Assembly (NCBI GenBank): GCA_963718995.1
Contig: CAVRAP010000006.1
Coordinates: 5,795-69,794, forward strand
DNA: 64,000 nt
From: an uncultured Actinomycetota bacterium
GTDB lineage: Bacteria > Actinomycetota > Acidimicrobiia > Spongiisociales > UBA4744
Direction: 5' to 3'
Positions 15,938 to 53,165 of this stretch are shown piece after piece (the stretch's first letter is position 1; every line of letters begins with the position of its first letter). Below the pieces are notes generated by a model. The model did not search any database. It was not told where the DNA came from and saw only the letters and a program-made list of their open reading frames with translations. Made by a program: the position numbers and the translations under genes.

Positions 15938-16123
15938 GGTTTCCAGTTTCCAGTTTCCAGTTCGTCCAGTAACCAGTTTCCAGTTATCAGTTATCAGTTA
16001 TCGGGTATCGGTATCAGAGAGTGGTATGCCGTTCGCTGGCTACTGGCTACTGGCTACCGGCTACTGGCTACTGGCTACTGGCTGACTGGCTGCTGGCTGC
16101 TGGCTACTGGCTACTGGCTACTG
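15938..16123. repeat. CAGT-core heptanucleotide tandem repeat array, inverted two-arm organisation
   Basis: Left arm (ccagttt)x3 then (tcagtta)x3 on the top strand. Right arm (ctggcta/ctggctg)x~12, which is (ccagtag)n on the bottom strand. Runs up to the stop codon of the MmpL gene. Confidence 0.9.
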
Positions 16124-18661
16124 TCCGCTTCCGACCAGCTCCCGCTCGACGGGAGCTTCGCCCCGGTTTCGATGCCAGCGGTCCCACAGGATCAACATGC
16201 TCGGGAGAACGCCGACCGAGGCAACCAGTGAGAACCCGATCGCCATGGCGGTCACCGCCCCGAACTGCTGAAAGGGGATCAGGCTCGAAGTCATCAGAAC
16301 GCCGAACCCGGCCAGAGTGGTGAAAGCCGAGCCGGCCAGGGCTCCGCCCGTATGGCCCGTGGTTGAGCGCATCGCTGCTTCAGGATCGTCGAACCGTTGC
16401 CGGTCTTCCAGATACCGGTGAGTCACGTGGATTGAGTAGGGGACGCCGATGCCGATAGCGAGGGCGGCGGTCATGGCGGTGACCGGCCCGAAGGGTATGT
16501 CCAGGACCGCCATCATCCCGTAGGTCCAGAGGACGACCATGACCACCGGGAGGATCGTGATGATGCCCAGGAACGGTCGGCGCGATTCGTACCAGAACGT
16601 TGCAACGAGCAACAGCATCGCAGCCGACAGGGTGATGATCAGCGATAGGTTCTGCGAGTCTTGCAGCGCTCCGACCACCGAGGCAGTCATGATGTTGACG
16701 TTGGTGGCGGTGGCGGTGACCTCGGGGAGCGCGGTTACGGGCGCGAAGTCGGCCGCCAGGTCGTCGGCCAGCTGCGCAGCGAATTCCTCTCCGGCCTGCG
16801 TCGAGACCTCGACCCTGGCGTAGCGGAGCAAACCCGCATCGTCGGCCGCCAGGACTGTCGGCATGATCGTTGGAGCCGCTTGCAGGGCGGACCGGTAGAT
16901 GGCTTCTACATTGGCGTCGTCGCTCATCGTCAAATCGGAGGTCATGCCCAACGTCCGGGCACGTTCGGCGAACTCGGGGTCGGCAGGCTGACCGCTCGCG
17001 TCGGGTCTGACCAGAGAAGCAATGACAGAGATGGGACTCTGCGCGGCGGCGTAGCCGTCGAGCGTTACGACGTGGTCGGTGCCTGCCAGGTTGGCGATGG
17101 CCGCCAGCAGGGCATTGTGGGACCGGGGTGTTGCCAGGTCGCCCTCGATGAGTATGTCGACGGTTTCGCCGAACCCACCACTGAATTCTTCCGCCAGAGT
17201 CTCGTACGACGTGCGGAGCGGGTCTTCGGCCGGCACGAAGTCGGTCGAACTGAATTCGGTGGTGAGTCGTGACATGCCGAAAGCACCGAGGCCGGTGAGG
17301 GCCAGCGCCAGTACCAGGGTGGGTATGGCCAGGTGCTCGGCAACGAGGGCCGTCTTGCTCATGACCTTCGGCATCAATCGTTGCTCGGGACGCTCGAACT
17401 CGCGGCGCGGCAGGGAATCCGCCCGTTCGGCACGTTGATCGAGCAGGACCCGGACGGCGGGGAGGAAGGTCAGGGTGATCAGGAAGGCCCCGACGATTCC
17501 AATCGCAGCCACGATGCCAAAGTCCCGGAGCGGCGGGATGGGATTGGCGACGTTGGTGAGGAAGCCGACCGCTGTGGTGGCGGTAGCCAGGATCAGGGCG
17601 ATCCCAACGGTCGTAGTCGCCCGCTCGGCCCCGGCCTTGACCTCCCGGCCCGCTCCCAGTTCCTCCCGGTAACGGGCCGTCACGTGGATGGCGAAGTCAA
17701 CTCCCAATCCGACCAGGAGCACGGGTAACACCTGGAGCAGCGGACTGAAGTCCCCGATCACGTGCAGGTACTTGGGGCCGAGCAGCACTCCGATACCAAT
17801 GACCCAGACAATCGACATGCCGATGGCTGCCAGGGTGAGACCCAGGTCTGCGAACGTCCGGCGGACGGCTGCAGCACCGTTGCGTCTTTCCTTCGGCCGG
17901 ATCCAATACACCGTGGCGAGGATGGCGGCGATGGTGGCTCCGGCGATGAGAAAAAGCCGGATGAGTTCATCGGAGAGCGGATCGACGGTGAGCAGCAGCT
18001 CGGCGCTGAACGCGGTAGCCGTGGTTGACCCCACGCCCGCGCCCGACACAACGCCGGTGATTGCGGTCTGCAGCGTCTGGAGCGCACTGAGGTCCAATCC
18101 GGAGGTGTCGAGGAACACGACCATCAGTCCGGTCCCCGACGTGACCGCCGCCAGGTCCGTACTGGTTGAGGAGAGGAGGCCCTCGAAGAGCTGCCGCTGT
18201 TCCCGGGGTACCCGGGCAAGCGAACCGGTGAAGGCGGCCTTCACGGCCTGGTCGTCGAGTGCGGAAATCGGATAGGCCATCGCCTGGACTGCCTGCAGGG
18301 TCGGTGTTAGGTAGCCGACGACGGGACCGTCCGGGCGGTCACTGAGTGCCACGGCGGGTTCCAGCCCGCGAATGGCCTGTTCGACGGCCAGCACCGTTTG
18401 CAGGCCTTCCGCCGTAATGACATCTCCTCCCGCTGACTCGATGAGGACCTGGACGGTGTTTTCGGAGCTTCCGAACCGCTCGTCGATGGTGGTGAGGGCG
18501 CGCAGCTCGGCGTTGTCGGGGACGAAGACCTCGATGCCGCTGGTCTGGACGAGTTGGGGGGCGAAGGCCCCGAATAGAGCGGTCAGCGTCAGGATGACGA
18601 TGATGACGGCGACGGGTGCTTTCCGTACGATGGCAGCCAGGAACATGACGAGGGTCTTCAC
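16118..18661 (-). CDS. MMPL-family RND-type membrane transporter
   Basis: 847 aa with two 6-TM bundles and large periplasmic loops (MmpL architecture). Divergent from a TetR gene. Confidence 0.85.
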   Translation of the reverse strand: MKTLVMFLAAIVRKAPVAVIIVILTLTALFGAFAPQLVQTSGIEVFVPDNAELRALTTIDERFGSSENTVQVLIESAGGDVITAEGLQTVLAVEQAIRGLEPAVALSDRPDGPVVGYLTPTLQAVQAMAYPISALDDQAVKAAFTGSLARVPREQRQLFEGLLSSTSTDLAAVTSGTGLMVVFLDTSGLDLSALQTLQTAITGVVSGAGVGSTTATAFSAELLLTVDPLSDELIRLFLIAGATIAAILATVYWIRPKERRNGAAAVRRTFADLGLTLAAIGMSIVWVIGIGVLLGPKYLHVIGDFSPLLQVLPVLLVGLGVDFAIHVTARYREELGAGREVKAGAERATTTVGIALILATATTAVGFLTNVANPIPPLRDFGIVAAIGIVGAFLITLTFLPAVRVLLDQRAERADSLPRREFERPEQRLMPKVMSKTALVAEHLAIPTLVLALALTGLGAFGMSRLTTEFSSTDFVPAEDPLRTSYETLAEEFSGGFGETVDILIEGDLATPRSHNALLAAIANLAGTDHVVTLDGYAAAQSPISVIASLVRPDASGQPADPEFAERARTLGMTSDLTMSDDANVEAIYRSALQAAPTIMPTVLAADDAGLLRYARVEVSTQAGEEFAAQLADDLAADFAPVTALPEVTATATNVNIMTASVVGALQDSQNLSLIITLSAAMLLLVATFWYESRRPFLGIITILPVVMVVLWTYGMMAVLDIPFGPVTAMTAALAIGIGVPYSIHVTHRYLEDRQRFDDPEAAMRSTTGHTGGALAGSAFTTLAGFGVLMTSSLIPFQQFGAVTAMAIGFSLVASVGVLPSMLILWDRWHRNRGEAPVERELVGSGQ

Positions 18662-18721
18662 GGGATAGTCTCCTTGGGAACCTTTAGCAACAAATGATAC
18701 ACTTCATGTAAAGATCGTAAC

Positions 18722-19307
18722 ATGGCTGAAAACACCAACACAACTCGCGAACGGATCCTGGAGGCCGCTCTCGAGCTGTTCATCCGCCAGGGGATCCGCA
18801 AGACGTCGATCGACGATGTTGCCGATCGGGCGGGCGTAACGAGGGTCACGGTGTACCGGCACTTCTCGGATCGGCAACAGTTGATTGGAGAGTCGTTCCG
18901 TCTGGTCAACGCAACGTTCGACCGGATCCGGGCGGCTCTCGAAGACGAACCGGACCTCGACGGCTACCTGAACCGAATGGCGACCGAGCTGACTTCGGTA
19001 CCGCTCGGAATCATGTCGGGCTTGGCTGAACTGGAAACGCTGCATCCGGACATCCACGCCGACCTGCGCAAAGGCAGACGCAAGCTTCTCCGTGCGATCT
19101 TTGACCAGCTCTACGCCCGGGCGCAAGAACGAGGGCAGACTGCGATCTGGTCTCGACAAAGACGTGGTTGAAGCCTTGTTCTGGGAGGTCGTGATGACCC
19201 TCCCGGAGAGCTCGGTGCTTTCGTCGCGCGGGCTGACGCCTGCCGAGATATACGCAACGCTCAGCGGCTTGCTACTGCACGGTCTCCTGAAAGAGTCGGA
19301 CCGCTAG
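18722..19307 (+). CDS. TetR-family transcriptional regulator (apparent frameshift near 19133)
   Basis: N-terminal 'RERILEAALELFIRQGIRKTSIDDVADRAGVTRVTVYRHF'. ORFs 18722..19171 and 19092..19307 join as '...YARAQERG/RLRSGLDKDVVEALFWEVV'. Confidence 0.7.
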
Positions 19308-20038
19308 CGGGCGGTCCCTCGCATCGAACCGGTCAGAAGTGACCCGTTGAGATCGTAGAGGACGCACGTGATGGCGTGATCCCCCTCGCCCCAGCCTTCC
19401 TCACTTGGATAGAAGTAGCCAAAATCGAGGACGGAGTCCTCATAGGCAATCGAAACGAAAGTGTCGAAGGCAGTGAGACAGAACTGATCGGCGAAATCCC
19501 AGATGGCTGTTTCCCCCGGAAATGACTCGGAGGTCGTGTAGTTGGTCGTCACGTAGACCTCGTTTTCGTGCGGCTCGTTGCAGGGGATCGCGTCGACGTC
19601 CTTGATTTCGACGGCATCCTCAGATCCGGACGGCATGTCAAAACAATCGCCGGCCCGCAGCTCGGTAACTTCGAGATCCCCGGCTTCCACAATGACGCCG
19701 GAGTCGGTCCGGTCGGCGCCGTTGAGGGCTCCATCGATCAAGCCCCACGCAGTGGGGGCGAGGACGAGCAGCAGGAAGCCACCCCGCAGGACGTTCTTGA
19801 GGGGAAAGCCGCGCCCGGGGGGTGCGGTGACGGGTGGAGGTGGTATCTCCTGAGCGGCCACATAGGTTTCGGCATCCTGGCCTTCGAGGGTGTACGGGTC
19901 GGCCTCCCGGTCGAACTCGATGCCGGGCGGTGGCGGGGGGAGGTCCCTTCGCTGACCGAGCAGCGGGCCCCGGCAGGTCGGGCAATACGCGGGCGATGCG
20001 TCACCGACGTCGGCGCTGCAATGCGGGCACGGTTTCAT
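19304..20038 (-). CDS. membrane protein with N-terminal zinc ribbon and Pro-rich linker
   Basis: 'CPHCSADV...CPTCRG' zinc ribbon, a 'PPPPPG'/'PPPPVTAPPG' linker, one TM helix and a C-terminal extracytoplasmic domain of about 130 aa. Confidence 0.5.
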   Translation of the reverse strand: MKPCPHCSADVGDASPAYCPTCRGPLLGQRRDLPPPPPGIEFDREADPYTLEGQDAETYVAAQEIPPPPVTAPPGRGFPLKNVLRGGFLLLVLAPTAWGLIDGALNGADRTDSGVIVEAGDLEVTELRAGDCFDMPSGSEDAVEIKDVDAIPCNEPHENEVYVTTNYTTSESFPGETAIWDFADQFCLTAFDTFVSIAYEDSVLDFGYFYPSEEGWGEGDHAITCVLYDLNGSLLTGSMRGTAR

Positions 20039-20097: not shown

Positions 20098-21198
20098 TCA
20101 GGTACCGGCAACGAGAAGCGGAACCTGAAGCTCCTCCTTTGCCAGCCCGCCGTGATAGCCGGTCAGCCGCTTGTCCATGAAGCGGGGGATCAACAGGCGG
20201 CCCGGATCGGCAAGCAGGACCTTGTCCGGCAGTCGTCCGGCCAGGTCCGGATGGTCCCGGCCGGGCCCCAACCAGGTCCGGTACTCCGATGTCTCAACGA
20301 CCCGGCATGGCAGGCCGACGAGCGCCTTCGAGAGCTCGGCGTCGAACCGGCGCACCAGCACCGCTCGGGGGTCGCCGTAGAATTCTGGTCCCATCCGGTG
20401 CGGGATGAACGCCTTGTCGCCTTCGGCGTAGTCGATGTGCCCGTGATCGGCAGTTCCCACCATCACCGCGTGAGCCGGGAGGGCCGAGGCAATGCGGTCC
20501 CAGACGGCGGCCGCCGTCGAGATGGCTGCGGCGTACTCATCAGAGCCCTGGCCACCCACGTGGGCGGCCACGTCAACATTCGGGAAGTACGTGAAGATGA
20601 ACCGGCCGGGCACCGCAGCCAGCTGGGCGGTGGCGTCGATGATCTCGTTGATGGTCCACACGGCTTCATTGCGACATCCTCGATAGAGAACCCGGCTGAG
20701 CGGACTGTCCTGAAAGTTGCCGGGCTGCACGGTGATCGGCTCAATGTCATGGGCTCGCAAGCGCTGCCACAGGTTGGGGGCCGGCAGGAAGGAATCGTGG
20801 TCGAGGCGTACGGCTTCCCCCCAGGGTGTCGTCCACTTCAAGGTGTTCACGACCTGACCGGCGGCGGGAACATACAGTTGGTGCCCGATCAGACCGTGGG
20901 TCCCGGGCGCCAGCCCGGTGGCGATGGTCGCCAGGTTGGCGCTGGTCGTGGTGGGAAAGACCGCGTCGAGAGCCGCGGTCCGGGCGTTGCGGAGGGAAGC
21001 CGCCCCGGGGTGCTGGAGCTGGGCATCGCCCAAGCCGTCGAAAAGGACGAGCACGTAGGTGGCGGCCTCCGGGATGTGCCCGGCGAGGTGAGCGTGCAGC
21101 CGCTCGGCCGGGGCAGATCCGGTCAGGCGATGTTCGAGCTCCGCCATCAGGTTGAGCAGGCTGCCGCCGGCGTAGTCGGGAATGGAGGGTTCAATCAC
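20098..21198 (-). CDS. alkaline phosphatase-family (nucleotide pyrophosphatase/phosphodiesterase-like) metalloenzyme
   Basis: Metal-ligand pattern 'FDGLGD...T(T)(S)...DHGH' typical of the AP superfamily. GTG start at 21198. Confidence 0.6.
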   Translation of the reverse strand: MIEPSIPDYAGGSLLNLMAELEHRLTGSAPAERLHAHLAGHIPEAATYVLVLFDGLGDAQLQHPGAASLRNARTAALDAVFPTTTSANLATIATGLAPGTHGLIGHQLYVPAAGQVVNTLKWTTPWGEAVRLDHDSFLPAPNLWQRLRAHDIEPITVQPGNFQDSPLSRVLYRGCRNEAVWTINEIIDATAQLAAVPGRFIFTYFPNVDVAAHVGGQGSDEYAAAISTAAAVWDRIASALPAHAVMVGTADHGHIDYAEGDKAFIPHRMGPEFYGDPRAVLVRRFDAELSKALVGLPCRVVETSEYRTWLGPGRDHPDLAGRLPDKVLLADPGRLLIPRFMDKRLTGYHGGLAKEELQVPLLVAGT

Positions 21199-21307
21199 AG
21201 TTTCCAGTTTCCAGTTATCAGTTGTCAGTTATCAGTCATCAGTCATCAGTCATGAGTCATGAGTTATCAGTTGCCAGTTGCCAGTTGCCAGTTGCCAGTT
21301 GCCAGTC
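21197..21307. repeat. CAGT-core heptanucleotide tandem repeat array (unidirectional)
   Basis: (ccagttt)(ccagtta)(tcagttg)(tcagtta)(tcagtca)x3(tgagtca)x2...(gccagtt)x5. Lies in the divergent promoter region between 21198(-) and 21455(+). Confidence 0.9.
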
Positions 21308-21454
21308 AAGCACTCTCGCTATGCGCGAGATGCCGAATGACGGCTGTCGACCGAACCGGGGATTCGCCTAAATGTGACCTTTTGGCCTAGCTTGACGGGC
21401 CTATGGGACCCGTGTGTAACCACCGGTCATCTATAGCGTTTCATCACATAAACC

Positions 21455-25207: not shown

Positions 25208-26391
25208 TGGACCACGAAGCCGCCATGGCTCTCTCGGAAGTGTCCGTCTCCATCGAACTCGAAACTCCGGAGATGACGCTGAACATCGGACCACAGCACC
25301 CGTCAACGCACGGGGTTCTCCGCCTGGTTGCCCAGGTCGACGGCGAGCGGGTCCGCGATATCAAGCCGGTCATCGGGTACATGCACCGCGGGTACGAGAA
25401 GATCTCGGAAGTCCGTACGTACCCGCAGATCACCGCTCTGATCAATCGCCTCGACTGGGTCGCCGGGTACGCAAATGAAATCCCTTTCATCGTCGGCGCC
25501 GAGCGGCTGATGGAACTGGAAGTTCCCCCGCGCGCCCAGTACATCCGGCTGATCCTCACCGAGATGGCCCGGATCTCTTCCCATCTGATCTTTTGTGGTT
25601 CCTACCCGCTCGAGTTGGGGGCCGGGACCCCCATGTTCTTCGCTCTGCGGGAAAGGGAGCGGGTGCTCGATCTCATGGAGGCGGTCACCGGCGGCCGTTT
25701 CCACCTCAACTTCAACCGCCTGGGCGGTGTTAAACCGACAGCCGGGGCCGGTTCCAGCACCCGCAAGCAAATCCAGGACCTTCCCAAGGGTTTCTACGAG
25801 GGCACCCGGGCCGCCATGGGGCGGGTGCTCGGCGTGTGCGACGAACTGGACCAGCTCATCAGCGGCAACGAGATCCTCTTTGCGCGTACCAAAGGTGTCG
25901 GGGTGATGACACCGGAGCAAGCGGCCGCCTACGGGGTCTCCGGTCCCAATCTGCGCGGGTCGGGAGTTGCCTTCGATCTCCGCAAAGTCGAGCACTACCT
26001 GCCGTACGACCAGCTGGATTTCAACGTGATAACCCGCCAGGAAGGCGATTGCTACGCCCGGTACGCCGTGCGGGTCGACGAGGTCCGGGAGTCGGCCAAG
26101 ATGATCATCCAGGCGATCGATTCGATTCCCTCAGGACCGTTGCAGGCGAAGGTGCCGAAGATCATCAAGGTGCCAAAAGGCGAGACCTATATGCGGGCGG
26201 AGAACCCCAAAGGTGAGATGGGCTACTACATCGTCTCCGAGGGCGGCACCGGACCGTACCGCTTGAAGATCCGCACCGCCTCCTTCTCCAACATCTCCGT
26301 GCTGTCCGAACTCATGGAAGGTGCTTTGATCCCCGACATCGTTGCCATCATGGGCAGTTTCGACTTCGTCCTCGGCGAGGTGGATCGATGA
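25207..26391 (+). CDS. nuoD: NADH-quinone oxidoreductase subunit D (49-kDa)
   Basis: 'LNIGPQHPSTHGVLRL', 'YMHRGYEKI' and the C-terminal 'RTASF' region. ATGA overlap with nuoC. Confidence 0.9.
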   Translation: MDHEAAMALSEVSVSIELETPEMTLNIGPQHPSTHGVLRLVAQVDGERVRDIKPVIGYMHRGYEKISEVRTYPQITALINRLDWVAGYANEIPFIVGAERLMELEVPPRAQYIRLILTEMARISSHLIFCGSYPLELGAGTPMFFALRERERVLDLMEAVTGGRFHLNFNRLGGVKPTAGAGSSTRKQIQDLPKGFYEGTRAAMGRVLGVCDELDQLISGNEILFARTKGVGVMTPEQAAAYGVSGPNLRGSGVAFDLRKVEHYLPYDQLDFNVITRQEGDCYARYAVRVDEVRESAKMIIQAIDSIPSGPLQAKVPKIIKVPKGETYMRAENPKGEMGYYIVSEGGTGPYRLKIRTASFSNISVLSELMEGALIPDIVAIMGSFDFVLGEVDR

Positions 26392-26448
26392 TGCCTGCGA
26401 CCTACGGCCGCAGGTTGACGAACTTCGTTCGTCGCTCGCTGCGCTCGA

Positions 26449-26536
26449 TCAGTTTCCAGTTTCCAGTTTCCAGTTTCCAGCAAGGAGGCGGTCCTCGATT
26501 GCGGACTGGCTACTGGCAACTGGCTACTGGCTACTG
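26449..26536. repeat. CAGT-core heptanucleotide repeat array, inverted two-arm organisation, inside the nuo cluster
   Basis: (cagtttc)x4, then 'caaggaggcggtcctcgattgcgga', then (ctggcta/ctggcaa)x4. Fills most of the 163-bp nuoD-nuoH spacer. Confidence 0.9.
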
Positions 26537-26554
26537 CTTGCCTCCGCAGGAGGC

Positions 26555-27538
26555 GAGCGTATGAACTTCTGGCTCGAGCTGGCGATCAAGCTGGTCGTGA
26601 TCGGGGCCATGATCCCGCTGACGGCCTTGGTGCTCGGCTACGGAGAGTTGAAGATCTCGGCTCACATGCAGTCCCGGATCGGCCCGTATTTCGCCGGCGG
26701 CCGGTGGGGTTGGGCGCAGCTCCTGGCCGACGGGGTGAAGTTCATTCAGAAAGAAGACATCATCCCGGACAATGCCGACCGACCGGTCTTCAAGGTCGCC
26801 CCGGTGCTCGTGATGATCTCGACTGCCACGCTCTTCGTCATTCTCCCCTTCGGCCCGGGTGACGGGTTCATTGTCCGTGACCTCAACCTCGGCATCTTCT
26901 ACGCGCTGGCGATTTCCTCGGTCGGGACCATCGGGGTCTTGATGGCCGGGTGGTCGTCCGGGAACAAGTACTCCCTGATGGGGGGTCTCCGGGCGGCGGG
27001 CCAGTTGATCGCCTACGAGTTGCCGCTCGTGCTGGCCGTAGTCGGCGTCGTGATCCAGGCGGGCACCATGTCGATGCAGGGCATCGTCGATGCGCAGATC
27101 GCCCAGGGATGGCCGTATGTGTTCACCCAGTTCCTCGGGTTCTTCATCTTCCTCATTGCCGGACTGGCCGAGCTCAGTCGAACCCCGTTTGATATGCCGC
27201 TTGCCGAATCCGAGCTGATCTCCGGCTATCTGACCGAATACTCCGGTTTCCGGTTCCTCTTCTTCTACCTGGCCGAGTACGCCAGCATGTTCGCCGTTGC
27301 CGCCATCGCAACCACGTTGTTCCTCGGTGGCTATGCCTTCTGGGGCGTTTCGGCTTCCTGGACCGGGCCGATCTTCTTTGTTGGGAAGGTCTTGATGATC
27401 GGCTTCGTCATCATCTGGCTGCGCTGGACCTTCCCGCGTTTCCGTGAGGACCAACTGCAGACACTGGCCTGGAAATGGCTCATCCCGCTCGCCCTGGCCA
27501 ACATCCTCGTCACCGCGGTTCTCAAGGTGGTGTTCTGA
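26555..27538 (+). CDS. nuoH: NADH-quinone oxidoreductase subunit H
   Basis: 8-TM protein with the 'QSRIGPY...GLLQ'-type motif. RBS 'aggagg' at 26542. Trimmed from ORF 26342..27538. Confidence 0.9.
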
Positions 27539-34628: not shown

Positions 34629-36703
34629 ATGCCGGTAGACGAAGACAAGTCCCCGCAACGCAAGGCCGCCAAGAAACCCGCCGCCAAGAAACCGGCGGCG
34701 CCGCCCGCCTCTCCGGCCTCCCCGGCGAAACCAACCGCCGGAACGCCGGCCGCCCAACCACCTGCGGAGGCAGCCTCCGCCGATCTGCCCTATTTCAGCC
34801 TGCTCACCGAAGACGACCTGTTCCTGTTCAACGAAGGCTCGCACTTCCGGCTCTACGAGAAGCTGGGTTGTCATCTCGTCGAGGTAGAAGGCGTGGCCGG
34901 GGCCTATTTCGCTGTGTGGGCGCCGGACGCCGAGTACGTGTCGGTGATCGGGGACTTCAACTTCTACAACCCGGGCGAGCACCCGCTCAAGCCGAAAGGA
35001 GCCTCGGGGATCTGGGAGGGGTTCATCCCCGGGATCGAACAAGGCGAGACGTACAAGTTCCACATCGGCTCCAAGTTCAACGTGTACCGGGTGGACAAAG
35101 CCGACCCCTTCGCGACCTACTCCGAGGTGCCGCCCAAGACGGCCTCTCGCGTCTGGGATCTCGCTTACGAGTGGGGTGACGCTGACTGGATGAAGGTCAG
35201 AGAGGTCCATAACGCCCACAACGCCCCCATATCGATCTACGAGATGCACCTGGGCTCGTGGCGGCGGGTTCCCGAGGAGGGCAACCGGTCGCTCACGTAC
35301 CGGGAGACCGCTCCTCTGCTGGTCGAACACCTCCAGAAGATGAACTTCACGCATGTGGAGTTCCTGCCGGTCATGGAGTATCCGTTCGGTGGTTCGTGGG
35401 GATACCAGTCGACCGGCTACTTCGGTCCGACCTCCCGATTCGGTAGCCCGGAGGACTTCATGTTCCTCATCGACACGCTGCACCAGGCGGGGATCGGCGT
35501 GATCGTCGACTGGGTGCCTTCGCACTTCGCCACCGACGAGCACGGCCTCGGCTATTTCGACGGCACGCACCTGTACGAGCATTCGGACGAGCGCGAAGGG
35601 CTTCCATCCCGACTGGGGGAGCTGGATCTTCAACTACGGCCGCAACGAGGTGCGCAGCTTCCTCATCTCCAGCGCCATCTCCTGGCTGGACCGGTATCAC
35701 ATCGACGGGATCCGGGTTGATGCGGTCGCCTCGATGCTGTACCTCGACTACTCCCGCGAAGACGGCGAGTGGATCCCCAACGAGTACGGCGGCAACGAGA
35801 ACATCGAAGCGATCACTCTGCTGCGGCGGTTCAACGAGGAGGTCTACCGCCAGTTCCCGGACGTGCAGACCTTCGCCGAGGAATCGACCGCCTGGCCGTC
35901 GGTGTCCCGGCCCGACCTACATCGGCGGACTCGGGTTCGGCTTCAAGTGGGACATGGGATGGATGCACGACACCCTGGCCTACATGCAACTCGATCCGCT
36001 GTTCCGTCAGTACCACCACAACGACCTGACGTTCCGGGGTCTGTACGCCTTCACGGAGAGTTTCACGCTGCCGCTCTCCCACGACGAGGTGGTGCACGGC
36101 AAGGGTTCGCTGGCCGCCAAGATGCCGGGCGACGACTGGCAGAAGTTCGCCAACCTGCGCCTGCTCTACGCCTACATGTTCGCCCAGCCCGGCAAGAAGC
36201 TGCTGTTCATGGGCGGCGAGATCGCCCAGTGGGCCGAGTGGAACCACGACGGTTCGCTGGCCTGGGACCTGCTGGATTGGGAACCGCACCGCGGCATCCT
36301 CAAGCTGGTCGGCGACCTCGGCCGGGTCTACCGGGATGAGCCGGCGCTCTACGAGTGGGACACCGACGACCGCGGCTTCGAATGGGTGGAGGCCAACGAC
36401 TGGCAGGCGAGCACCCTCTCATGGTTGCGACGGGGCGGGTCGACCGACGACATCATCCTGGCCATCTTCAACTTCACCCCGGTCGCCCGGTACAACTACC
36501 GCATGGGCGTGCCGCGCGAGGGCCACTGGGAGGAGATCCTCAACACCGACGCCGCCGATTACGGTGGCAGCGGTCTGGGCAACCTCGGAGGGGTGGAAGC
36601 TCACAAGACCGGCGCCCACGGCCGGCCGTTCTCGGTGAATCTGACGTTGCCTCCCCTGGGGGCGGTGTTCCTGAAGAGTTCTCAGGAGCTGAGTTCCCCG
36701 TAA
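34629..36703 (+). CDS. glgB: 1,4-alpha-glucan branching enzyme with Ala/Lys/Pro-rich N-terminal extension (two apparent frameshifts near 35595 and 35915)
   Basis: GH13 motifs '[13 protein letters not shown]', '[17 protein letters not shown]', 'FAEESTAWP' and '[13 protein letters not shown]'. The three ORFs 34629..35720, 35650..36339 and 35717..36703 are successive frames of one gene. Confidence 0.8.
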
Positions 36704-36746
36704 CCAGTTGCCAGTAACCAGTAATTGGCAGTTCCAGTTGCCAGAA
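36699..36746. repeat. short CAGT-core heptamer array
   Basis: 'aaccagttgccagtaaccagtaattggcagttccagttgccag' overlaps the glgB stop. Confidence 0.7.
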
Positions 36747-36761
36747 TGTGCTGGATGACTG

Positions 36762-38154
36762 ATGACTGATGGCTTTTCTCTGAAGCAGCGACTGATCGAA
36801 CAGATCCGGGTTGAGGGTCCGATGCCGTTCGAGGATTTCATGGCGGCAGCCCTCTATGACCCCGAGGATGGGTTCTTCACGTCCAAGTCTCTGCGGTCCG
36901 TCAAGTCCGGCGATTTCCTGACCAGCCCCGAAGTAAGCCCCCTCTTCGGCGAAACCCTCGCCAAGTTCGTAGACCAGGAACTCTCCACCCTCCCCCTCAC
37001 CCCCTCCCGCCGGCGGGAGGGGGAAAGAGAAACGACGCCCCGCCGCCCACGCCGGGGCAGGTGCCCTGACCGCGCGGGTCGATGCGCAGAACTCCCTCTC
37101 CCGCTGGCGGGAGAGGGTTGGGGAGAGGGTGGAAGAGGCCGCACGGAAGAAGACAGTCTCCAGCCAGGAAGACACCCCAGACTACGTCCTCCCCCGGCTC
37201 TGCCGGGGGAGGTGGCCCGGCCCAAAGGGCCGGGTCGGAGGGGGCAGGTCCCCGAACAGTCCGATCGAGAGCAGGACTCCCTCTCCCGCTGGCGGGAGAG
37301 GGTTGGGGAGAGGGTGGAACCAACCCCGCTCCTCGTCGAGGTCGGAGCCGGTTCCGGGTCGCTCCTCAAACCCCTCCTCGCCACCCTCGAGACCCCGATC
37401 GAGCCCTGGGCCGTCGAGGCATCCCCGGCCGCTCGTGAGGCTCTGGGAGAGCTGATCGATCCCGACCACATCGTCCGCACCCTCGACGATCTGCCCGACC
37501 ACTTCTCCGGCGTCGTGGTCGCCAACGAACTCCTGGACAATCTGCCGGTCGCCATCGCCGTCCGCACCGGTCATGGCTGGACGGAACGCTGGGTAGGAGT
37601 CCAAGACGATGATCTGGTCCTCGTCCCCGTCGACGCTCGCCCCGAGGTCGCCGACATGGGCCGAGCAATTCGGCCTCCCCGCCCCCGAACGAGGCCTGGT
37701 CGAGGTGCAACTGGCCGCAGCGGAGTGGCTGCAATCGATCCTGACCCGTCTCGACTCGGGAACGATCCTGTTGATCGACTACGGCGACACCGCCGAGAAC
37801 CTGGAGAAGCGGCGGGTGGAGGGAACCCTCCGCACCTACCGGGCCCACCACCTCGGCCCCCACCCCCTCGACGAACCGGGAGAGACCGACATCACCGCCG
37901 ACGTCAACTTCACGGCGCTGATCGATCGAGCCGTGCAACTGGGAGCGAGCATCGAGTACCACCGCCAGGACGACTTCCTCGACCAGTTCGGGTTGCGAGC
38001 CCGCCTCAGCAAACTCCGCCACCAAGAACTGGACCTGGCCCGCGACGGCGACCCGATGGAGCGATTGAAGGTGCGGTCCACCCGGACCGAAGCCGAGACG
38101 CTGCTCCACCCGCGTGGCCTGGGCGACTTCCGTGTCCTGGTGGTCCGAAAGTGA
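36762..38154 (+). CDS. MidA/NDUFAF7-like SAM-dependent methyltransferase (DUF185), interrupted in frame by a repeat insertion and carrying an apparent frameshift near 37660
   Basis: N-terminal 'PMPFEDFMAAALYDPEDGFFTSK...GDFLTSPEVSPLFGE', SAM site 'LVEVGAGSGSL' and a C-terminal part in ORF 37609..38154. The 606-aa ORF 36762..38582 is the N-terminal part followed by an out-of-frame run-on. Confidence 0.65.
36990..37330. repeat. three copies of a GC-rich palindromic element (core cctctcccgc-tg-gcgggagagg) inserted in frame in the MidA-like gene
   Basis: 'ctccctctcccgctggcgggagagggttggggagagggtggaa' occurs at about 37086 and about 37270. A variant 'ccctcccgccggcgggaggggg' occurs at about 37005. 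The insert translates to 'LPLPLAGEGWGEGG'. Confidence 0.8.
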
Positions 38155-42039: not shown

Positions 42040-42350
42040 GCCGCTGCGGTACTTGCCACCCTCTCCGCGTCGCCGCCTGTGGCAGCGACGCGCCTCTCCC
42101 GCTTGCGGGAGAGGCTGGGAAGGCGTGGTGTGTGTTGGTTGGGTGGGGCGGTCTCGCGGGAGGATGTCTTGCCACCCTCTCCGCTTCGCCGCCTGTGGCA
42201 GCGACGCGCCTCTCCCGCTTGCGGGAGAGGCTGGGAAGGCGGGGTGTGTGTTGGTTGGGTGGGGCGGTCTCGCGGGAGGATGTCTTTTCACCCTCTCCGC
42301 TTCGCCGCCTGTGGCAGCGACGTGCCTCTCCCGCCGGCGGGAGAGGCAAG
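42040..42350. repeat. tandem array (~2.7 x 118 bp) of GC-rich palindromic element containing cctctcccgc-tt-gcgggagagg
   Basis: Unit 'caccctctccgc.tcgccgcctgtggcagcgacgcgcctctcccgcttgcgggagaggctgggaaggcg.ggtgtgtgttggttgggtggggcggtctcgcgggaggatgtctt' is repeated. Confidence 0.85.
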
Positions 42351-44240: not shown

Positions 44241-44322
44241 GCCGGGATGCCCGAGCGGCCAAAGGGAGCAGACTGTAAATCTGCCGGCAATGCCTTCGGA
44301 GGTTCAAATCCTTCTCCCGGCA
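44241..44322 (+). tRNA. tRNA-Tyr (GTA), long variable arm
   Basis: Acceptor gccggga/tctcccggc, D-arm 'cccgagcggccaaaggg', anticodon loop 'gactgtaaatc', extra arm 'gccggcaatgccttcgga' and T-loop 'ggttcaaatcc'. Confidence 0.85.
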
Positions 44323-44415
44323 CCTGGCGCCCAGCGCCTCCTTGAGCCAGGCTCAAGTAAGTTAAAAAAGGCGGAGAATCGCTTGCGATTCTCCAACCTG
44401 AACTCGAAGGTTCAG

Positions 44416-44488
44416 GCCCCCTTAGCTCAGCTGGCAGAGCGCCGCCATGGTAAGGCGGAGGTCTCCGGTTCAATTCCGGAAGGGGGCT
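44416..44488 (+). tRNA. tRNA-Thr (GGT)
   Basis: Acceptor gccccct/agggggc, D-arm 'gctcagctggcagagc', anticodon loop 'ccatggtaagg' and T-arm 'tccggttcaattccgga'. Confidence 0.85.
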
Positions 44489-44582
44489 CGAAGCGGCGAC
44501 CGAAACTCGTCGTGACACGGGCTTGGCCAAGGGCGACGAAGCGCCGCAGGCGGTTCGTCCAACCTGAAGCGAAGCTTCAGGC

Positions 44583-44656
44583 GGCGGCGTAGCTCAGTTG
44601 GTAAGAGCGCTCGACTCATAATCGAGAGGTCGGCAGTTCAAGTCTGCCCGCCGCTA
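44583..44656 (+). tRNA. tRNA-Met (CAT), elongator type
   Basis: Acceptor ggcggcg/cgccgct, anticodon loop 'gactcataatc' and T-arm 'ggcagttcaagtctgcc'. The anticodon stem lacks three consecutive G-C pairs, so it is not an initiator. Confidence 0.8.
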
Positions 44657-44696
44657 CGACAGGAACTGACGGGAACGGAAGAAGGAAGGTACCCCC

Positions 44697-45887: not shown

Positions 45888-45980
45888 GTCCCGCCGCCGG
45901 GCGGCGGGGCGTACTTCGTACGGATCGAAGTACCAGGTACGAAGTACAAGATACGTGAACGAGCGAAGCGAGCGAACCTT

Positions 45981-48109: not shown

Positions 48110-48185
48110 AGGGGTGTAGCTCGAAGTTGGTTAGAGCGCCGGTCTCCAAAACCGGAGGTTGTGGGTTCGAGTCCCTCCACCCCTG
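48110..48185 (+). tRNA. tRNA-Trp (CCA)
   Basis: Acceptor aggggtg/cacccct, D-arm 'gctcgaagttggttagagc' and anticodon loop 'ctccaaa'. Conserved position directly upstream of secE. Confidence 0.8.
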
Positions 48186-48210
48186 CTGATCGATACGAAA
48201 AGGTGTTGGC

Positions 48211-48510: not shown

Positions 48511-48515
48511 TCGAC

Positions 48516-49145
48516 ATGGCCAAAGTGGTTGAGGAACAGCAAGAAGAAGAGACCGGAGCGGACGAGGAGAAGGTTGAAGAAGCCCCCCGTCCGGTCAGTC
48601 CATTCGATCTGCCCGGCGACTGGTATGTGATCCATTCGTACTCCGGGTACGAGAACAAGGTGAAAGTCAACCTCGAGACGCGAACCCGATCAATGCACAT
48701 GGAGGACCGCATCTTCGAGGTGGCGATCCCGATGGAAGATGTTGTCGAGTTCAAGGGTGGTAAGAAAGTCACCACCCCGAAGAAGGTATTCCCCGGGTAC
48801 ATCCTCGTCAGGATGTACCTCGACGATGACTCCTGGTACGCGGTGCGCAACACTCCCGGTGTGACGGGTTTCGTCGGATCCGGCATCAAGCCGACACCTC
48901 TGGCCAGACGCGAAGTTGAGCGATTCCTGGGAGTCCAGGAAGAGGAAGAAACCAAGAAGGCCCCACGGTTCAAGCCGGCGTGGGAGATCGGGGAAAGCGT
49001 GCGGGTGGTAACCGGCCCGTTCGCCGATTTCAACGGCGTGATCGAAGACATGAACATCGATCAGCAGAAGGTGACCGTGCTGGTGAACATCTTCGGTCGG
49101 GATACCCCGGTCGAATTGGGATTCGGCGACATCCAGAAGCAATAG
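48516..49145 (+). CDS. nusG: transcription termination/antitermination factor NusG
   Basis: NGN domain '[14 protein letters not shown]' and KOW '[22 protein letters not shown]'. Acidic N-terminal tail. Confidence 0.9.
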
Positions 49146-49240
49146 GAGTTATCAGTCTTCCGAACAAACGGATGACTGAGGAACTGAGAGGGCGGCCGCA
49201 GGCCGACCGACTGAAGACTGAAATACTGAGGACTGAAATC
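49146..49240. repeat. degenerate CAGT/ACTG heptamer cluster with central palindrome gggcggccgcaggccgacc
   Basis: 'tcagtcttc...gactgaggaactgag...gactgaagactgaaatactgaggactgaaatc' in the nusG-rplK spacer. Confidence 0.6.
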
Positions 49241-49669
49241 ATGGGACGAAAACGACTAGCAGCCATCTTGAAGCTTCAAATCCCGGCCGGCCAGGCCAGC
49301 CCGGCGCCGCCGGTCGGTCCCGCACTCGGCCAGCACGGGGTGAACATCATGGACTTCGTGAAGGCGTACAACGCTGCCACGGAGAGCCAAACGGGCACCA
49401 TCGTTCCCGTCGAGATCTCGATCTATGAGGATCGCAGTTTCACCTTCATCACCAAGACCCCCCCGGCGGCGGTCTTGCTTCGGCAGGCCGCCCGGTTGGA
49501 GAAAGGTTCGCCGGAACCCCACAAGGAAAAAGTCGGGTCGGTCACCAGCGATCAGGTCCGTCAGATCGCCGAAACGAAGATGGTCGACCTGAACGCCAAC
49601 GATATCGAAGGGGCGATGAAGATCATCGCCGGAACCGCCCGTTCGATGGGGATTGTTGTCAAGGGTTGA
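49240..49669 (+). CDS. rplK: 50S ribosomal protein L11
   Basis: '[30 protein letters not shown]'. Confidence 0.95.
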
Positions 49670-49752
49670 TGCCTTTGGCAGTGATCAGTACTCAGTCTTC
49701 AGTCGTCAGTACTGATAACTGGCAACTGACAACTGCGGCACGAAGTGCCGCT
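49670..49752. repeat. CAGT-core heptamer array plus 7-bp GAAG-loop hairpin (gcggcac-gaag-gtgccgc)
   Basis: (cagtgat)(cagtact)(cagtctt)(cagtcgt)(cagtact)(gataact)(ggcaact)(gacaact), then the hairpin. Lies in the rplK-rplA spacer. Confidence 0.8.
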
Positions 49753-49810
49753 CTAGGAATTGGGAGGCTGCGGGCACAAAGTCCGGGCCGTTTGAACCAC
49801 AGGAGGAAAG

Positions 49811-50506
49811 ATGCCGAAGCACGGCAAGAAATACAACGATGCGTTGAAACTCTTCGACGCTACGACCGCCTATCCGGCCGCTGCGGCAGTTCAGCTGGTC
49901 AAGTCCATGTCCTTCGTCAAGTTCGATGAAACGGTCGAAGCTGTCTTCAAGCTCAGCATCGATCCCCGCAAGGCCGATCAGTTGGTGCGCGGCACCGTCA
50001 GCCTGCCACACGGCACCGGTAAAGATGTTCGGGTCGCAGTCTTTGCGCAAGGCGACAAAGTGCGCGAAGCCGAGGCGGCCGGGGCCGACCTCGTCGGCGG
50101 CGCCGAATTAGTTGCAGAATTCCAGGGCGGTCGAGCTCTCGAATTCGAAGTCGCCATCGCCACCCCCGATCTCATGGCCGAGGTCGGAAAGCTCGGGCGC
50201 GTGTTGGGCCCCCGCGGCCTGATGCCGAATCCCAAAGCCGGCACCGTCACGTTCGACGTGGGCAAGGCGGTCGAGGAGTTCAAGGCCGGCCGTATCGAGT
50301 ATCGCAACGATCGGTACGGCAATGTGCATGCTCCGATCGGCAAGGTCTCATTCACCGATGAGCAACTGGATGAGAATCTGGCGGCACTCACCGCCGAAAT
50401 TGTCCGGGCGCGTCCGGCGTCGGCCAAGGGGCGGTTCGTTCGCAACCTCTCGGTCTCGTCGACGATGGGTCCGGGGGTACGGGTCGACGTCGGCAAGATG
50501 CTGTAG
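49811..50506 (+). CDS. rplA: 50S ribosomal protein L1
   Basis: 231 aa with '[19 protein letters not shown]' and '[12 protein letters not shown]'. Confidence 0.95.
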
Positions 50507-50527
50507 ACAGTCTGGATCAGTTTTCAG

Positions 50528-50551
50528 TCGGGCGGCCCTCCGGGGCCGCCC
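50528..50551. terminator. stem-loop cgggcggccc-tccg-gggccgcccg followed by ctttgtt
   Basis: 10-bp perfect GC stem 22 nt after the rplA stop. Nearly identical to the hairpin after rplL. Confidence 0.6.
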
Positions 50552-50559
50552 GAGCTTTG

Positions 50560-51340
50560 TTGGTGGTGTGCCGGCCTGAGCTTTGTTGGTGGTGTGCCGT
50601 CCCCCCTCCGCCTCGCTGCGCTCGGCACCTCCCCCCTTCCTACTCACTTCGTTCGCAGGGGGGAGGGGTTCGCAGGGGGGAGGGCTTCGCAGGGCGGGGA
50701 GGGAGGTTGGGGAGAGGGCTTGGGGGTCCTCGTTCTCGAGCGAGGGCACGGTGGTTCCTTGGTGGGAACCTGGACTGACGGCGGTGCGAAGGCCGTCCCG
50801 CTGCCGCTCTTCTACGGCGATACGTCAGGGTAGGGGCTGTCGTATCGCCGGAGTGACACCGGTGCCCGTTCGTGCCTCGGTCTTGGGTGGGGGCGGTTGA
50901 CAACCACCCTTGGACAAGGACCCCCAAAGCAAAACGTTGAGTTGTCAACCGGAGTGTCGCGCAATGCGCGGCGTGTGTCTACTCGTTTTGGTGTTGAAGG
51001 TCTGCGGGTCTTTGTTGGTGGGAACCATCCCCCCTCCGCCTCGCTGCGCTCGGCACCTCCCCCCGTCTTGCTCACTTCGTTCGCCGGGGGGCGCGAGGCA
51101 TCCCCTCTCCGCCTGGCTGCGTCGGCACCTCCCCCCGTCTTGCTCACTTCGTTCGCCGGGGGGAGGGCGCGAGGCATCCCCTCTCCGCCTGGCTGCGCTC
51201 GGCACCTCCCCCCGTCTTGCTCACTTCGTTCGCCGGGGGGCGCGAGGCATCCCCTCTCCGCCTGGCTGCGTCGGCACCTCCCCCCGTCTTGCTCACTTCG
51301 TTCGCCGGGGGGAGGGGAGCGAGGCATCGACTTGGCGTTG
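50560..51340. repeat. ~0.8-kb block of GC-rich repeats in the rplA-rplJ leader (direct 22-bp duplication, inverted gttgacaac...gttgtcaac, and ~4.5 tandem ~64-bp units)
   Basis: Tandem unit 'ctcgctgcgctcggcacctccccccgtcttgctcacttcgttcgccggggggcgcgaggcatcccctctccgcctgg' from about 51030 to 51335. Related copies lie at 50600-50720. Confidence 0.85.
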
Positions 51341-51499
51341 ACCAACACCGATTGGTACTGTTTGGTTCACAACTCCAATACCTCGGCCGAAGACCGCCGG
51401 TGCCTCAGGGCTCAAAGGGAAATTCCCGCCTGCGCAGGTTGGACCTCACAAGGGGCCATTCGTCTTCGGCGAGGGCCCCCGTTTTGATGAGGAGGAGTA

Positions 51500-52609
51500 A
51501 TGCCAAGACCTGAGAAGGTCCAGGCAGTTGAAAAGATACGAGAGCAGTTCGGCGAAGCCCGGGCTACCTTCGTGACCGAGTATCGCGGTCTGACGGTCGG
51601 CGAGCAGCAAGAGTTGCGCCGGAGCGTGCGGAAGGCCCAGGGCGAGTACCAGGTTCTCAAAATGTCCCTGGCGCGCAGAGCTGTCGAGGACATGTCCCTC
51701 GAAAGCCTGTCGGAACTGCTCGTCGGACCGACCGCCCTTGCGTTTGCCAACCACGACGCGGTTTCGGTTGCGAAAGTCCTTCGGGATTTTGCATCCGAGC
51801 ATGACAAGCTGATCATCAAGGGAGGAATCCTCGGCGAGGTCTTTTTGCCGCCCGAGCAGATCTCTCGATTGGCCGACATTGAACCGCGAGACGTCTTGCT
51901 GTCCAAGATCGCCGGCGGTTTCAAGGCACCGTTGTCCAAGATGGCCGGATTGCTCGGCGCCAAGATACGTGACGCTGCATCGATGTTTTCTCAACTGCTG
52001 GAAAAGAAGGAAGCAGAAGCGCCGGAGGTTGAAGAGGCTCCCGTCGCGGTTGCCGTCCCAACCGACGTAGTGACTGAGGAGGCTCCTGCCGCTGTGGTTG
52101 AGGAGGTTGCCGAGGTTGTGACTGAGGAGGCTCCTGCCGCTGTGGTTGAGGAGGTTGCCGAGGTTGTGACTGAGGAGGCTCCTGCCGCTGTGGTTGAGGA
52201 GGTTGCCGAGGTTGTGACTGAGGAGGCTCCTGCCGCTGTGGTTGAGGAGGTTGCCGAGGTTGTGACTGAGGAGGCTCCTGCCGCTGTGGTTGAGGAGGTT
52301 GCCGAGGTTGTGACTGAGGAGGCTCCTGCCGCTGTGGTTGAGGAGGTTGCTGAGGTTGTGACTGAGGAGGCTCCTGCCGCTGTGGTTGAGGAGGTTGCTG
52401 AGGTTGTGACTGAGGAGGCTCCTGCCGCTAAGGCCGAAGCACCTAAGAAACCGGCACCAAAGAAATCGGCACCCAAGAAACCGGCACCAAAGAAACCGGC
52501 ACCAAAGAAGAAGCCCGCTCCCAAGGCCAAGGCCGAAACGAGTACGGCAACAGCAGATGCTGACACGGCACCTGCTGACGGATCCGACGACACCGCCAAG
52601 GAGGAATAG
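51500..52609 (+). CDS. rplJ: 50S ribosomal protein L10 with ~185-aa C-terminal extension (7 x 17-aa acidic repeats + PKK-rich basic tail)
   Basis: Canonical L10 core '[33 protein letters not shown]...'. Then ([16 protein letters not shown])x7, encoded by seven near-identical 51-bp units at 52069..52426. Then '[32 protein letters not shown]'. Confidence 0.9.
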
Positions 52610-52614
52610 ACACC

Positions 52615-52998
52615 ATGGCAAAGATGAAGACAGACGAGCTCCTTGCGGTCTTCGAAGAGATGACCGTGCTCGAGCTCAAGGAATTCCTCGACTCGTTCGA
52701 GGAGCGGTTCGATGTCACGGCAGCCGCCCCGATGGCCATGGCAATGCCTGCCGCGGCCGGAGCTGCCGCCCCTGTGGAGGAAGAGCAGGACGAATTCGAC
52801 GTCATGCTCATTGCCGCAGGCGACAAGAAGATCCAGACCATCAAAGAGGTTCGGTCTTTGACCAGCCTTGGTCTGAAAGAAGCCAAGGACGTGGTCGACA
52901 ACGCCCCGAGCGCCGTGCTCGAAGGCGTGGACAAAGAGACCGCCGAAAAGGCCAAGGCCCAACTCGAGGGCGCAGGCGCTACGGTCGAACTGAAGTAA
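52615..52998 (+). CDS. rplL: 50S ribosomal protein L7/L12
   Basis: Ala-rich hinge and C-terminal '[27 protein letters not shown]...ATVELK'. Confidence 0.95.
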
Positions 52999-53024
52999 TC
53001 GATTCGACTGCGTCGAATCTCAGT

Positions 53025-53052
53025 CAGGGCGGCCCTTCGGGGCCGCCCTGAC
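53025..53052. terminator. 12-bp stem / UUCG-loop hairpin (tcagggcggccc-ttcg-gggccgccctga), preceded by a second hairpin gattcgac-tgc-gtcgaatc at 53002..53020
   Basis: Read directly. Lies between rplL and rpoB, the classical attenuator position. Confidence 0.6.
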
Positions 53053-53165
53053 AGTTTCCAGTCGGTCGGCCTGCGGCCGACCTCTCAGTTTCCAGTATCC
53101 AGTATCTGGCTATCCCAGGCCCGGGTAACTGGTAACCGGCAACCGCCAACTGCCAACTGGCGACG
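53052..53165. repeat. CAGT-core heptamer array with internal palindrome ggtcggcctgcggccgacc
   Basis: 'cagtttccagtcggtcggcctgcggccgacctctcagtttccagtatccagtatctggctatccc...ggtaactggtaaccggcaaccgccaactgccaactgg'. Confidence 0.8.

Follow-up and report, generated by a model that had tools for sequence, protein, structure and literature searches.

Heptanucleotide repeat arrays in the intergenic spacers of an uncultured Acidimicrobiia lineage, mostly inverted pairs of fixed polarity

Several spacers in a 64,000-nt stretch of an uncultured actinobacterial genome (assembly GCA_963718995.1, contig CAVRAP010000006.1, positions 5,795 to 69,794 of the forward strand; this whole stretch is referred to as the window in the rest of the text) are occupied by tandem 7-bp units that share a CAGT core. 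What kind of repeat is this, and do such arrays serve the cell or merely accumulate between its genes? An original prediction, made from the letters of the stretch alone, had called them a genome-specific family matching no named element. Neither part of that description held. The arrays are intergenic heptanucleotide simple-sequence repeats of the class known as long simple-sequence repeats (LSSR) or short tandemly repeated repetitive sequences (STRR) (PMC4679880, PMC4692102, PMC2670836), here in an uncultured Acidimicrobiia lineage, and CAGT-core arrays also occur in its relatives, in at least 120 contig stretches of the IMG/VR database and in other phyla (PMC4679880). The features of the class are all found: 7-nt copies that follow each other head to tail, an excess over what composition predicts, an intergenic and dispersed location, and a unit number that varies at one locus.

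The arrays proved real and far denser than chance, as predicted. The pattern CAGTN3CAGTN3CAGT has 28 matches in the window compared to a mean of 0.00 expected from 100 dinucleotide-preserving shuffles, and the regular expression proposed with the prediction, run on the window, returns 12 runs of at least three units over both strands. When exact tandem runs were scanned at periods 2 to 13, ten were found at period 7 and none at any other period, with CAGT ranking first among the 4-mer cores. Tandem Repeats Finder reports period-7 arrays at 15939-16017, 16036-16123, 21198-21306, 26450-26480, 26505-26536, 36692-36724, 36754-36771, 49209-49237, 49685-49735 and 53086-53106, thereby recovering nearly all coordinates of the original list. 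Two entries need qualification: 50515-50527 holds only two units, and 49146-49240 consists of degenerate ACTGA-type units with a GC hairpin between them. The list was also incomplete, having overlooked a GTAC-core pair at 45908-45955, within which the same program reports periods 7 and 14 at 45926-45955. The arrays are indeed richer in AT than their surroundings (50.7% GC compared to 62.4% for the window), the latter value being at odds with the ~66% GC that had been given for the genome. The sites are as follows.

Site 1, 15939-16126: between the stop of an MMPL transporter gene and the start of a methyltransferase gene, both on the minus strand.
Site 1, left arm, 15939-16017 (Tandem Repeats Finder): CAGT type on the plus strand, units CCAGTTT, CCAGTAA and TCAGTTA; on the minus strand, from which the methyltransferase gene (start 15916) is read in sense, the units are GAAACTG and TAACTGA.
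Site 1, right arm, 16036-16126: about 12 CTGGCTA units, ACTG type on the plus strand (12.4 copies, 92% matches), overlapping the stop of the MMPL transporter gene (16118-18661, minus strand).
Site 2, 21198-21309: about 16 CAGT units in a single orientation (CAGTTTC, CAGTTAT, CAGTCAT, CAGTTGC), in the divergent spacer between a phosphodiesterase-family gene (minus strand) and an EB_dh-family gene (plus strand).
Site 3, left arm, 26449-26481: four (T/C)CAGTTT units, 3′ of the nuoD stop at 26391, in the nuoD/nuoH spacer of an 11-subunit nuo operon (nuoA-D, H-N).
Site 3, right arm, 26505-26536: five ACTGGCT/ACTGGCA units, 25 nt before the nuoH start at 26561.
Site 4, left arm, 36692-36746: degenerate CCAGTTG and CCAGTAA units, overlapping the final codons of a glgB-like open reading frame (ORF) that ends at 36703.
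Site 4, right arm, 36754-36771: (GATGACT)2.6, ACTG type, overlapping the ATG of a Methyltransf_28 gene at 36762.
GTAC-core heptamer pair, 45908-45955: 3′ of tuf, GTACTTC GTACGGA ... GAAGTAC CAGGTAC GAAGTAC.
Site 5, 49146-49240: nusG/rplK spacer, degenerate ACTGA type (GACTGAA GACTGAA ATACTGAG GACTGAA), units interrupted by the GC hairpin and extending to the rplK ATG at 49241.
Site 6, left arm, 49679-49713: CAGTGAT CAGTACT CAGTCTT CAGTCGT CAGTACT, 3′ of the rplK stop at 49669; the whole site (49679-49738) lies in the rplK/rplA spacer.
Site 6, right arm, 49711-49738: ACTGATA ACTGGCA ACTGACA ACTG, followed by a conserved small hairpin and the rplA leader.
Site 7, 50515-50528: TCAGTTT TCAGTCG, downstream of rplA, two units only and below the array threshold; it precedes a canonical terminator-like hairpin at 50528-50553.
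Site 8, left arm, 53052-53106: rplL-rpoB spacer, CAGTTTC CAGTCGG, a GC hairpin, then TCAGTTT CCAGTAT CCAGTAT.
Site 8, right arm, 53125-53160: degenerate AACTGGT AACCGGC AACCGCC AACTGCC AACTGG, upstream of a block conserved before rpoB.

Every array site lies between genes, in agreement with the prediction, the flanking genes having been identified by Pfam and NCBIfam scans together with gene calls on syntenic contigs. A few array edges touch codons: one reaches the MMPL stop (16118-16120), another the point where the glgB-like ORF ends (36703) and a third the ATG at 36762. Because 7 is not a multiple of 3, an intragenic array would shift the reading frame. Of the four spacers between 15 and 38 kb that exceed 150 nt, three are that long because of an array. 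The prediction had also considered that all arrays might lie within one mobile element; this is not the case, the sites being spread over the nuo operon, the nusG-rplKAJL-rpoB cluster and unrelated spacers.

What had been described as simple arrays turned out to have an architecture that the prediction overlooked. Most sites are convergent inverted pairs on one strand, (CAGTnnn)n, a short loop and (nnnACTG)n, which are predicted to fold into long interrupted stem-loops in which cores of 4-5 nt are paired and separated by internal loops of 2-3 nt. The predicted fold is strongest relative to expectation for the pair of site 3 (26440-26565, −61.7 kcal/mol, z = −5.06), followed by those of site 6 (49670-49760, z = −3.78), site 1 (15917-16135, minus strand, −74.6 kcal/mol, z = −3.27) and site 4 (36690-36775, z = −2.45), and is weak for site 8 (53075-53170, z = −0.73).

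For comparison, we collected syntenic sequence from relatives whose L1 or NuoD is 86-97% identical (20 loci, together 227 kb), and used it to approximate the genome-wide test proposed with the prediction. The L1 and NuoD of the window are 100% identical to proteins encoded by a 76.6-kb NCBI/ENA contig, and the nearest named relatives (87-90% L1 identity) are labelled Acidimicrobiia bacterium. These loci contain 27 period-7 regions, one per 8.4 kb, compared to one region at period 5, two at period 6 and none at each of periods 8, 9, 10 and 11. A control set comprising 1.1 Mb around the L1 genes of diverse bacteria contains 25 period-7 regions, one per 44 kb, among which inverted pairs also occur, for instance in an Acidobacteriota and an Oscillospiraceae genome.

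The two arms of a pair always follow each other in the same order. Defining a close pair as neighbouring arrays of opposite orientation separated by a gap of no more than 80 nt, we found CAGT followed by ACTG in 93 of 93 cases and the reverse order in none (0/93). Three of these pairs are from the window, 11 from close relatives and 79 from IMG/VR contig stretches that had been retrieved via a strand-neutral pattern; the latter come from 27 contig stretches, mostly of ~60% GC, with 13 different dominant units. ACTG followed by CAGT occurs only at distances greater than 150 nt, because adjacent separate pairs then follow one another. Since reverse complementation leaves the arm order unchanged, the order is a property of the pair itself. 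This polarity points to a directional step in the origin of the pairs, or to selection against the reverse arrangement.

Inverted heptamer pairs with other units occur in the same ribosomal-protein region of an Acidobacteriota genome, of an Oscillospiraceae genome and of more distant Acidimicrobiia (L198 5035-5118 and 9913-9986; L189 6341-7128; L141; L146), with examples such as GCAGAAG / CTTCTGC, TAAGAGT / ACTCTTA and AATTGAC / GTCAATT. As these units are quite different, the paired-heptamer architecture is not tied to the CAGT core. Among the IMG/VR sequences, L114 (1-11465) is a Mu-like phage early region with GemA, Gam and a MuB-like AAA protein, in which nearly all intergenic spacers hold a hairpin of CAGT/ACTG heptamers, with 31 arrays counted over 11.5 kb; complementarity between the arms is close to perfect (TCAGTAA / TTACTGA), and AGTAAAGGC(C)AAAAACTGA is a recurring loop. 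L040, L048, L068 and L079 were grouped with it, and these IMG/VR contigs have ~61% GC.

Comparison of orthologous spacers showed that arrays keep their positions while close relatives differ in the number of units, in the unit sequence and even in whether an array is present. The rplK-rplA spacer is filled in one of three ways, always upstream of the conserved rplA leader: by a CAGT/ACTG heptamer hairpin (window, L289), by a GTAC-core heptamer hairpin (L002, L286, L283, L203) or by an unrelated GC-rich palindrome (L001, L284, L285, L287, L288, L290, L291, L204). The L1 protein can be identical, yet the spacer holds a GTAC hairpin or a GC-rich palindrome. The CAGT/ACTG arrays of the window and L289 align at equal length, and their central units differ by substitutions. 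The nuoD-nuoH pair is CCAGTTT / ACTGGCT in the window, CCAGTTT / ACTGGGT in L293 and TCAGTTn / ACTGGGT in L294, and across relatives the same anchors lie 161, 159, 98, 45, 42 or 35 nt apart. Site 2, the array upstream of the phosphodiesterase gene, has ~16, 10, 5 and 2 units across four relatives. Upstream of the methyltransferase gene, (CCAGTTT)n is retained in L294 and replaced by (CCCAGTT)3 in L292; the nusG-rplK array is near-identical in L001, and L002 has GAGTC-type heptamers there and GTAC-type heptamers in its rplL-rpoB spacer. Where the NuoD of a relative is 93-97% identical, arrays still occupy the same spacers. The series of ~16, 10, 5 and 2 units, like a nuoD-nuoH array that is present, altered or absent, fits the slipped-strand hotspot that was among the roles first proposed. 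Two short-read contigs, L283 and L203, start within an array, which suggests that arrays break short-read assemblies. One of the loci compared, L293 (8587-14643; contig_29666, ERZ25039508), contains the abhydrolase-nuoA-nuoD segment twice, along with several fused or split genes; the probable cause is an artefact of long-read assembly or a recent duplication.

We favour, as the probable explanation, that these are slippage-driven, non-essential intergenic repeats whose hairpins may affect mRNA processing or expression. Arrays would grow and shrink through replication slippage, might be lost through palindrome instability, and would not be essential to the cell. Any effect would be exerted by the stem-loop in intercistronic RNA or in 5′ untranslated regions, where it could change how mRNA is processed or how stable it is, or adjust expression according to copy number. 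An RNA effect of this kind would have precedents in the hmw1A hairpin, which is cut by ribonuclease III (RNase III), and in the proposed hupS-hupL STRR hairpin.

Several observations weigh against this explanation. The fixed 93:0 polarity is the main unexplained point, as slippage alone does not predict it. Of 33 pairs located between genes of the same direction, 15 gave the better fold on the sense strand and 18 on the antisense strand (Wilcoxon p = 0.26), and this comparison gave no sign of RNA-level selection on the arrays. The long single-orientation array of site 2 (21190-21320, z = +0.11) is predicted to give unstructured RNA. The nuoD-nuoH pair is absent from L292 and from six short contigs (L295-L300), so the array is dispensable there in the closest relatives; in L298 only CAG|CTACTG is left at the junction. 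Length differences between orthologous spacers, diverged flanks included, are not clean multiples of 7, and the mismatched spacers of 2-3 nt between paired cores persist with no compensation.

Some of these observations would suit arrays that are purely neutral or selfish mutational by-products, arising and decaying in tolerant spacers with no effect on the cell, which we consider possible although on balance unlikely. Such by-products would explain presence or absence and the exchange of fillers between close relatives, the lack of a folding bias toward the sense strand, and the fact that L001 and L295 have no array in 13-20 kb of the same region. They are also consistent with the orientation of single arrays toward start codons, which showed no bias in the IMG/VR set (69 vs 81, by a crude ORF criterion). 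However, a polarity of 93:0 requires a directional mechanism or selection, positions persist at ~7% protein divergence while the unit sequence changes, and the paired architecture is retained, as in Xanthomonas (PMC4692102).

A bolder and rather improbable proposal takes the polarity as its starting point: a mechanism that is conserved and directional would create or preserve CAGT hairpins, which would act as tunable intergenic punctuation common to hosts and phages. This mechanism might be a nuclease or a binding protein that recognises either the hairpin or CAGT specifically, or else slippage that is coupled to transcription and to RNase III. If true, it would explain the absolute CAGT-then-ACTG order, the recurrence of the core in Acidimicrobiia, cyanobacteria, Beggiatoaceae and Bacteroidetes, and the hairpins across the early-region spacers of Mu-like phages.

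We regard it as very unlikely that the arrays act as sites in mRNA, with ACUG(A) heptamers immediately upstream of start codons binding a translational regulator or ribosome-associated protein and the upstream CAGU arm serving as an antisense lock. Binding of this type was proposed by MacGregor for TAACTGA repeats (PMC4679880), whose reported orientation is the same as here: the start-proximal array reads ACTG on the sense strand at 7 of 7 window sites, TAACTGA occurs three times in sense orientation upstream of the methyltransferase gene, and ACTGA units reach the rplK ATG, an arrangement conserved in L001. However, the ACTG sense orientation at paired sites follows from pair polarity, leaving only two independent sites; single IMG/VR arrays are unbiased (69 vs 81); and the units vary among sites and relatives.

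Still less credit is due to double-stranded DNA sites for a nucleoid-associated protein or regulator, with units placed head to head, even though many sites have the CAGT core in common and a strict head-to-head order would be expected of a polar DNA-binding unit. The binding arrays suggested in the original prediction are disfavoured because the unit sequence changes between sites and, at one site, between relatives: CAGT, GTAC and GAGTC cores interchange at the same site, making a sequence-specific binding array unlikely, and even an unrelated palindrome replaces the core at the same spacer in close relatives. Moreover, with units spaced 7 bp apart, successive sites do not share a face of the helix, the nuo operon arrays are dispensable, and CAGT is neither depleted nor enriched outside the arrays (observed/expected 0.75-0.90). 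Least convincing of all are copies of a small mobile element, whether like a miniature inverted-repeat transposable element (MITE) or a repetitive extragenic palindromic (REP) sequence or borne by phages, since the window sites have no common termini, target duplications or loop sequences, each has its own mix of units and arrays change gradually at fixed positions, despite the clean presence or absence of ~125 nt at nuoD-nuoH and the Mu-like phage contigs in which CAGT hairpins with a conserved loop occur in almost every spacer.

Other identities were considered for the arrays and rejected. They are not intrinsic terminators, which combine a GC-rich stem with a U-tract: the heptamer hairpins have no following T-runs and none is among the terminator-like sites, and canonical terminator-like hairpins adjoin arrays, as at 50528-50553. 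Searches against Rfam at the gathering threshold matched only four tRNAs in the window and no known RNA family at the arrays. A restriction-site or methylation motif was discarded because no core is strongly avoided outside the arrays in any genome compared; outside arrays, CCAGT, TCAGT, GTAC and GAGTC have observed/expected ratios of ~0.8 to 1.2. In the window, the sites share no termini or flanks and all differ in length and unit mix, unlike MITEs, and they have no common conserved palindrome unit or flank, unlike REP sequences or bacterial interspersed mosaic elements (BIME). CRISPR loci consist of 23-50 nt repeats with unique spacers, whereas these are contiguous 7-nt copies with no spacers. 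A cyanobacterial origin, which STRR-like heptamers might evoke, was rejected since rpoC is unsplit, the tuf-secE-nusG-rplKAJL-rpoBC layout is non-cyanobacterial and the named relatives are Acidimicrobiia.

Several other features of the region were recorded. A second, GC-rich palindromic repeat family of the CCCTCTCC...GGGAGAGG type occupies 50548-50725, 51026-51328 and 42052-42347 of the window, the 1-kb rplA-rplJ spacer containing a 72-bp unit in 3.9 copies as well as related copies, and 42052-42347 a 116-bp unit in 2.6 copies; an element similar to this family replaces the heptamer hairpin in the rplK-rplA spacers of many relatives. The block at 49739-49810, upstream of rplA, is conserved in all relatives and consists of a small hairpin (GCGGCACGAAGTGCCGC) followed by GGAAATGGGAGGCTGCGG...GTCCGGGCCGYTTGAACCACAGGAGGA; from its sequence it looks like an autoregulatory leader of ribosomal protein L1, and it has no match in Rfam at the gathering threshold. 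Directly 5′ of the nuoH start, the sequence CCTCCGCAGGAGG (26540-26563) is conserved also in relatives that have no heptamer array, and is predicted to form a small hairpin in which the Shine-Dalgarno-like GGAGG would pair with CCTCC. The rplJ gene (L10, 51500-52609) contains an in-frame 48-bp tandem repeat of 7.7 copies at 52062-52429, encoding a 16-residue unit, and a 15-bp repeat at 52439-52509 encoding a lysine- and proline-rich tail, for an L10 of 369 aa; copy number varies, with called lengths of 311-375 aa in relatives and an 84-nt indel between L290 and L291. The glgB-like gene (CBM_48, alpha-amylase and alpha-amylase_C domains; 34629-36703) is split into overlapping ORFs, 34629-35720 and 35717-36703, and is a single gene of 685-689 aa in relatives; a frameshift or a sequencing error accounts for this difference. 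Genes for tRNA-Tyr, tRNA-Thr and tRNA-Met (44241-44657) lie upstream of tuf and that for tRNA-Trp (48110-48186) upstream of secE, giving the layout tRNAs-tuf ... tRNA-Trp-secE-nusG-rplKAJL-rpoBC, with genes for an extracytoplasmic function (ECF) sigma factor and a MaoC-like dehydratase between tuf and secE.

These results extend a poorly understood repeat class to an uncultured actinobacterial lineage. The literature that we searched describes heptanucleotide intergenic arrays only from cyanobacteria, some Proteobacteria and Bacteroidetes, and contained no description of such repeats in Acidimicrobiia. The nuo and rplKAJL-rpoBC spacers provide a comparative series on which the question of function versus mutational debris can be addressed, and any model of array origin or action has to accommodate the 93:0 polarity, a constraint both concrete and testable. 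There is also a practical side, as the arrays appear to fragment metagenome assemblies, with short-read contigs of this lineage ending within them.

How, then, do the arrays compare with known systems? According to Mrazek et al. 2007, as reported in two later papers, no long simple-sequence repeats are more over-represented in many prokaryotes than heptamers (PMC4679880, PMC4692102). Enterobacterial REP and BIME resemble the window arrays in being intergenic, often intercistronic, hairpin-forming, often arranged as inverted pairs and variable between strains, with a suggested effect on mRNA stability. However, a REP is a single imperfect palindrome of 20-40 nt with a conserved sequence, mobilised by a REP-associated tyrosine transposase (RAYT), whereas the window holds tandem 7-nt arrays. 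In Haemophilus influenzae, the transcribed (ATCTTTC)n of hmw1A supplies one of the two arms of a long hairpin within the 5′ untranslated region, this hairpin is cut by RNase III, and expression falls as copy number rises (PMC12721329). Both systems have a heptamer repeat, a varying copy number and a long hairpin, the last being a prediction from sequence in our case; hmw1A differs in being a single locus of a pathogen with proven RNase III cleavage and phase variation and a G-rich non-repeat arm, while here there are many loci and both arms are repeats.

The classic STRR units reportedly date from Mazel et al. 1990 and are said to be CCCCAGT, TTGGTCA and CAACAGT, two of the three containing CAGT. 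Cyanobacterial STRR are 7-bp repeats that form hairpins, for instance between hupS and hupL, with proposed roles in transcript stability or translational coupling (PMC2670836). The window arrays share with them the 7-bp tandem units and intergenic hairpins, and L293 and L294 even carry ACCCAGT. In contrast to the strict STRR1-3 of heterocystous cyanobacteria, the units are CCAGTTT, TCAGTTA, CCAGTAG and the like, and the host belongs to the Acidimicrobiia.

The repeats of the TAACTGA family (MacGregor 2015, PMC4679880) are direct and intergenic and occur in Beggiatoaceae, cyanobacteria and Bacteroidetes, often just 5′ of start codons, including those of ribosomal protein genes, with indels between strains that come in 7-nt steps (PMC4679880). 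Its reverse complement, TCAGTTA, is found at 15981-16001, as (TCAGTTA)3, and within 21212-21232, TAACTGA-type units being a minority of the units here. In the Orange Guaymas 'Maribeggiatoa' (BOGUAY), nearly all TAACTGA repeats are direct, of one unit and 2-6 copies, with a single indirect repeat (PMC4679880), whereas the present arrays mix unit variants, are mostly inverted pairs and belong to the phylum Actinomycetota.

Xanthomonas genomes carry ~185 GGGAATC arrays each, 70-75 sites being convergent inverted pairs (Rehm et al. 2015, PMC4692102), and site position is conserved across species while length and sequence vary and the single or paired type is preserved (PMC4692102). The window arrays agree with these in their 7-nt unit, mostly intergenic location, dispersal over many loci, convergent array pairs and positions that last while length and sequence change (PMC4692102). 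They differ in that Xanthomonas is a gammaproteobacterium with a G-rich G-quadruplex unit, while the window units have no GGG or G-tracts. The closest matches are thus Xanthomonas for the architecture, and TAACTGA and STRR for the core.

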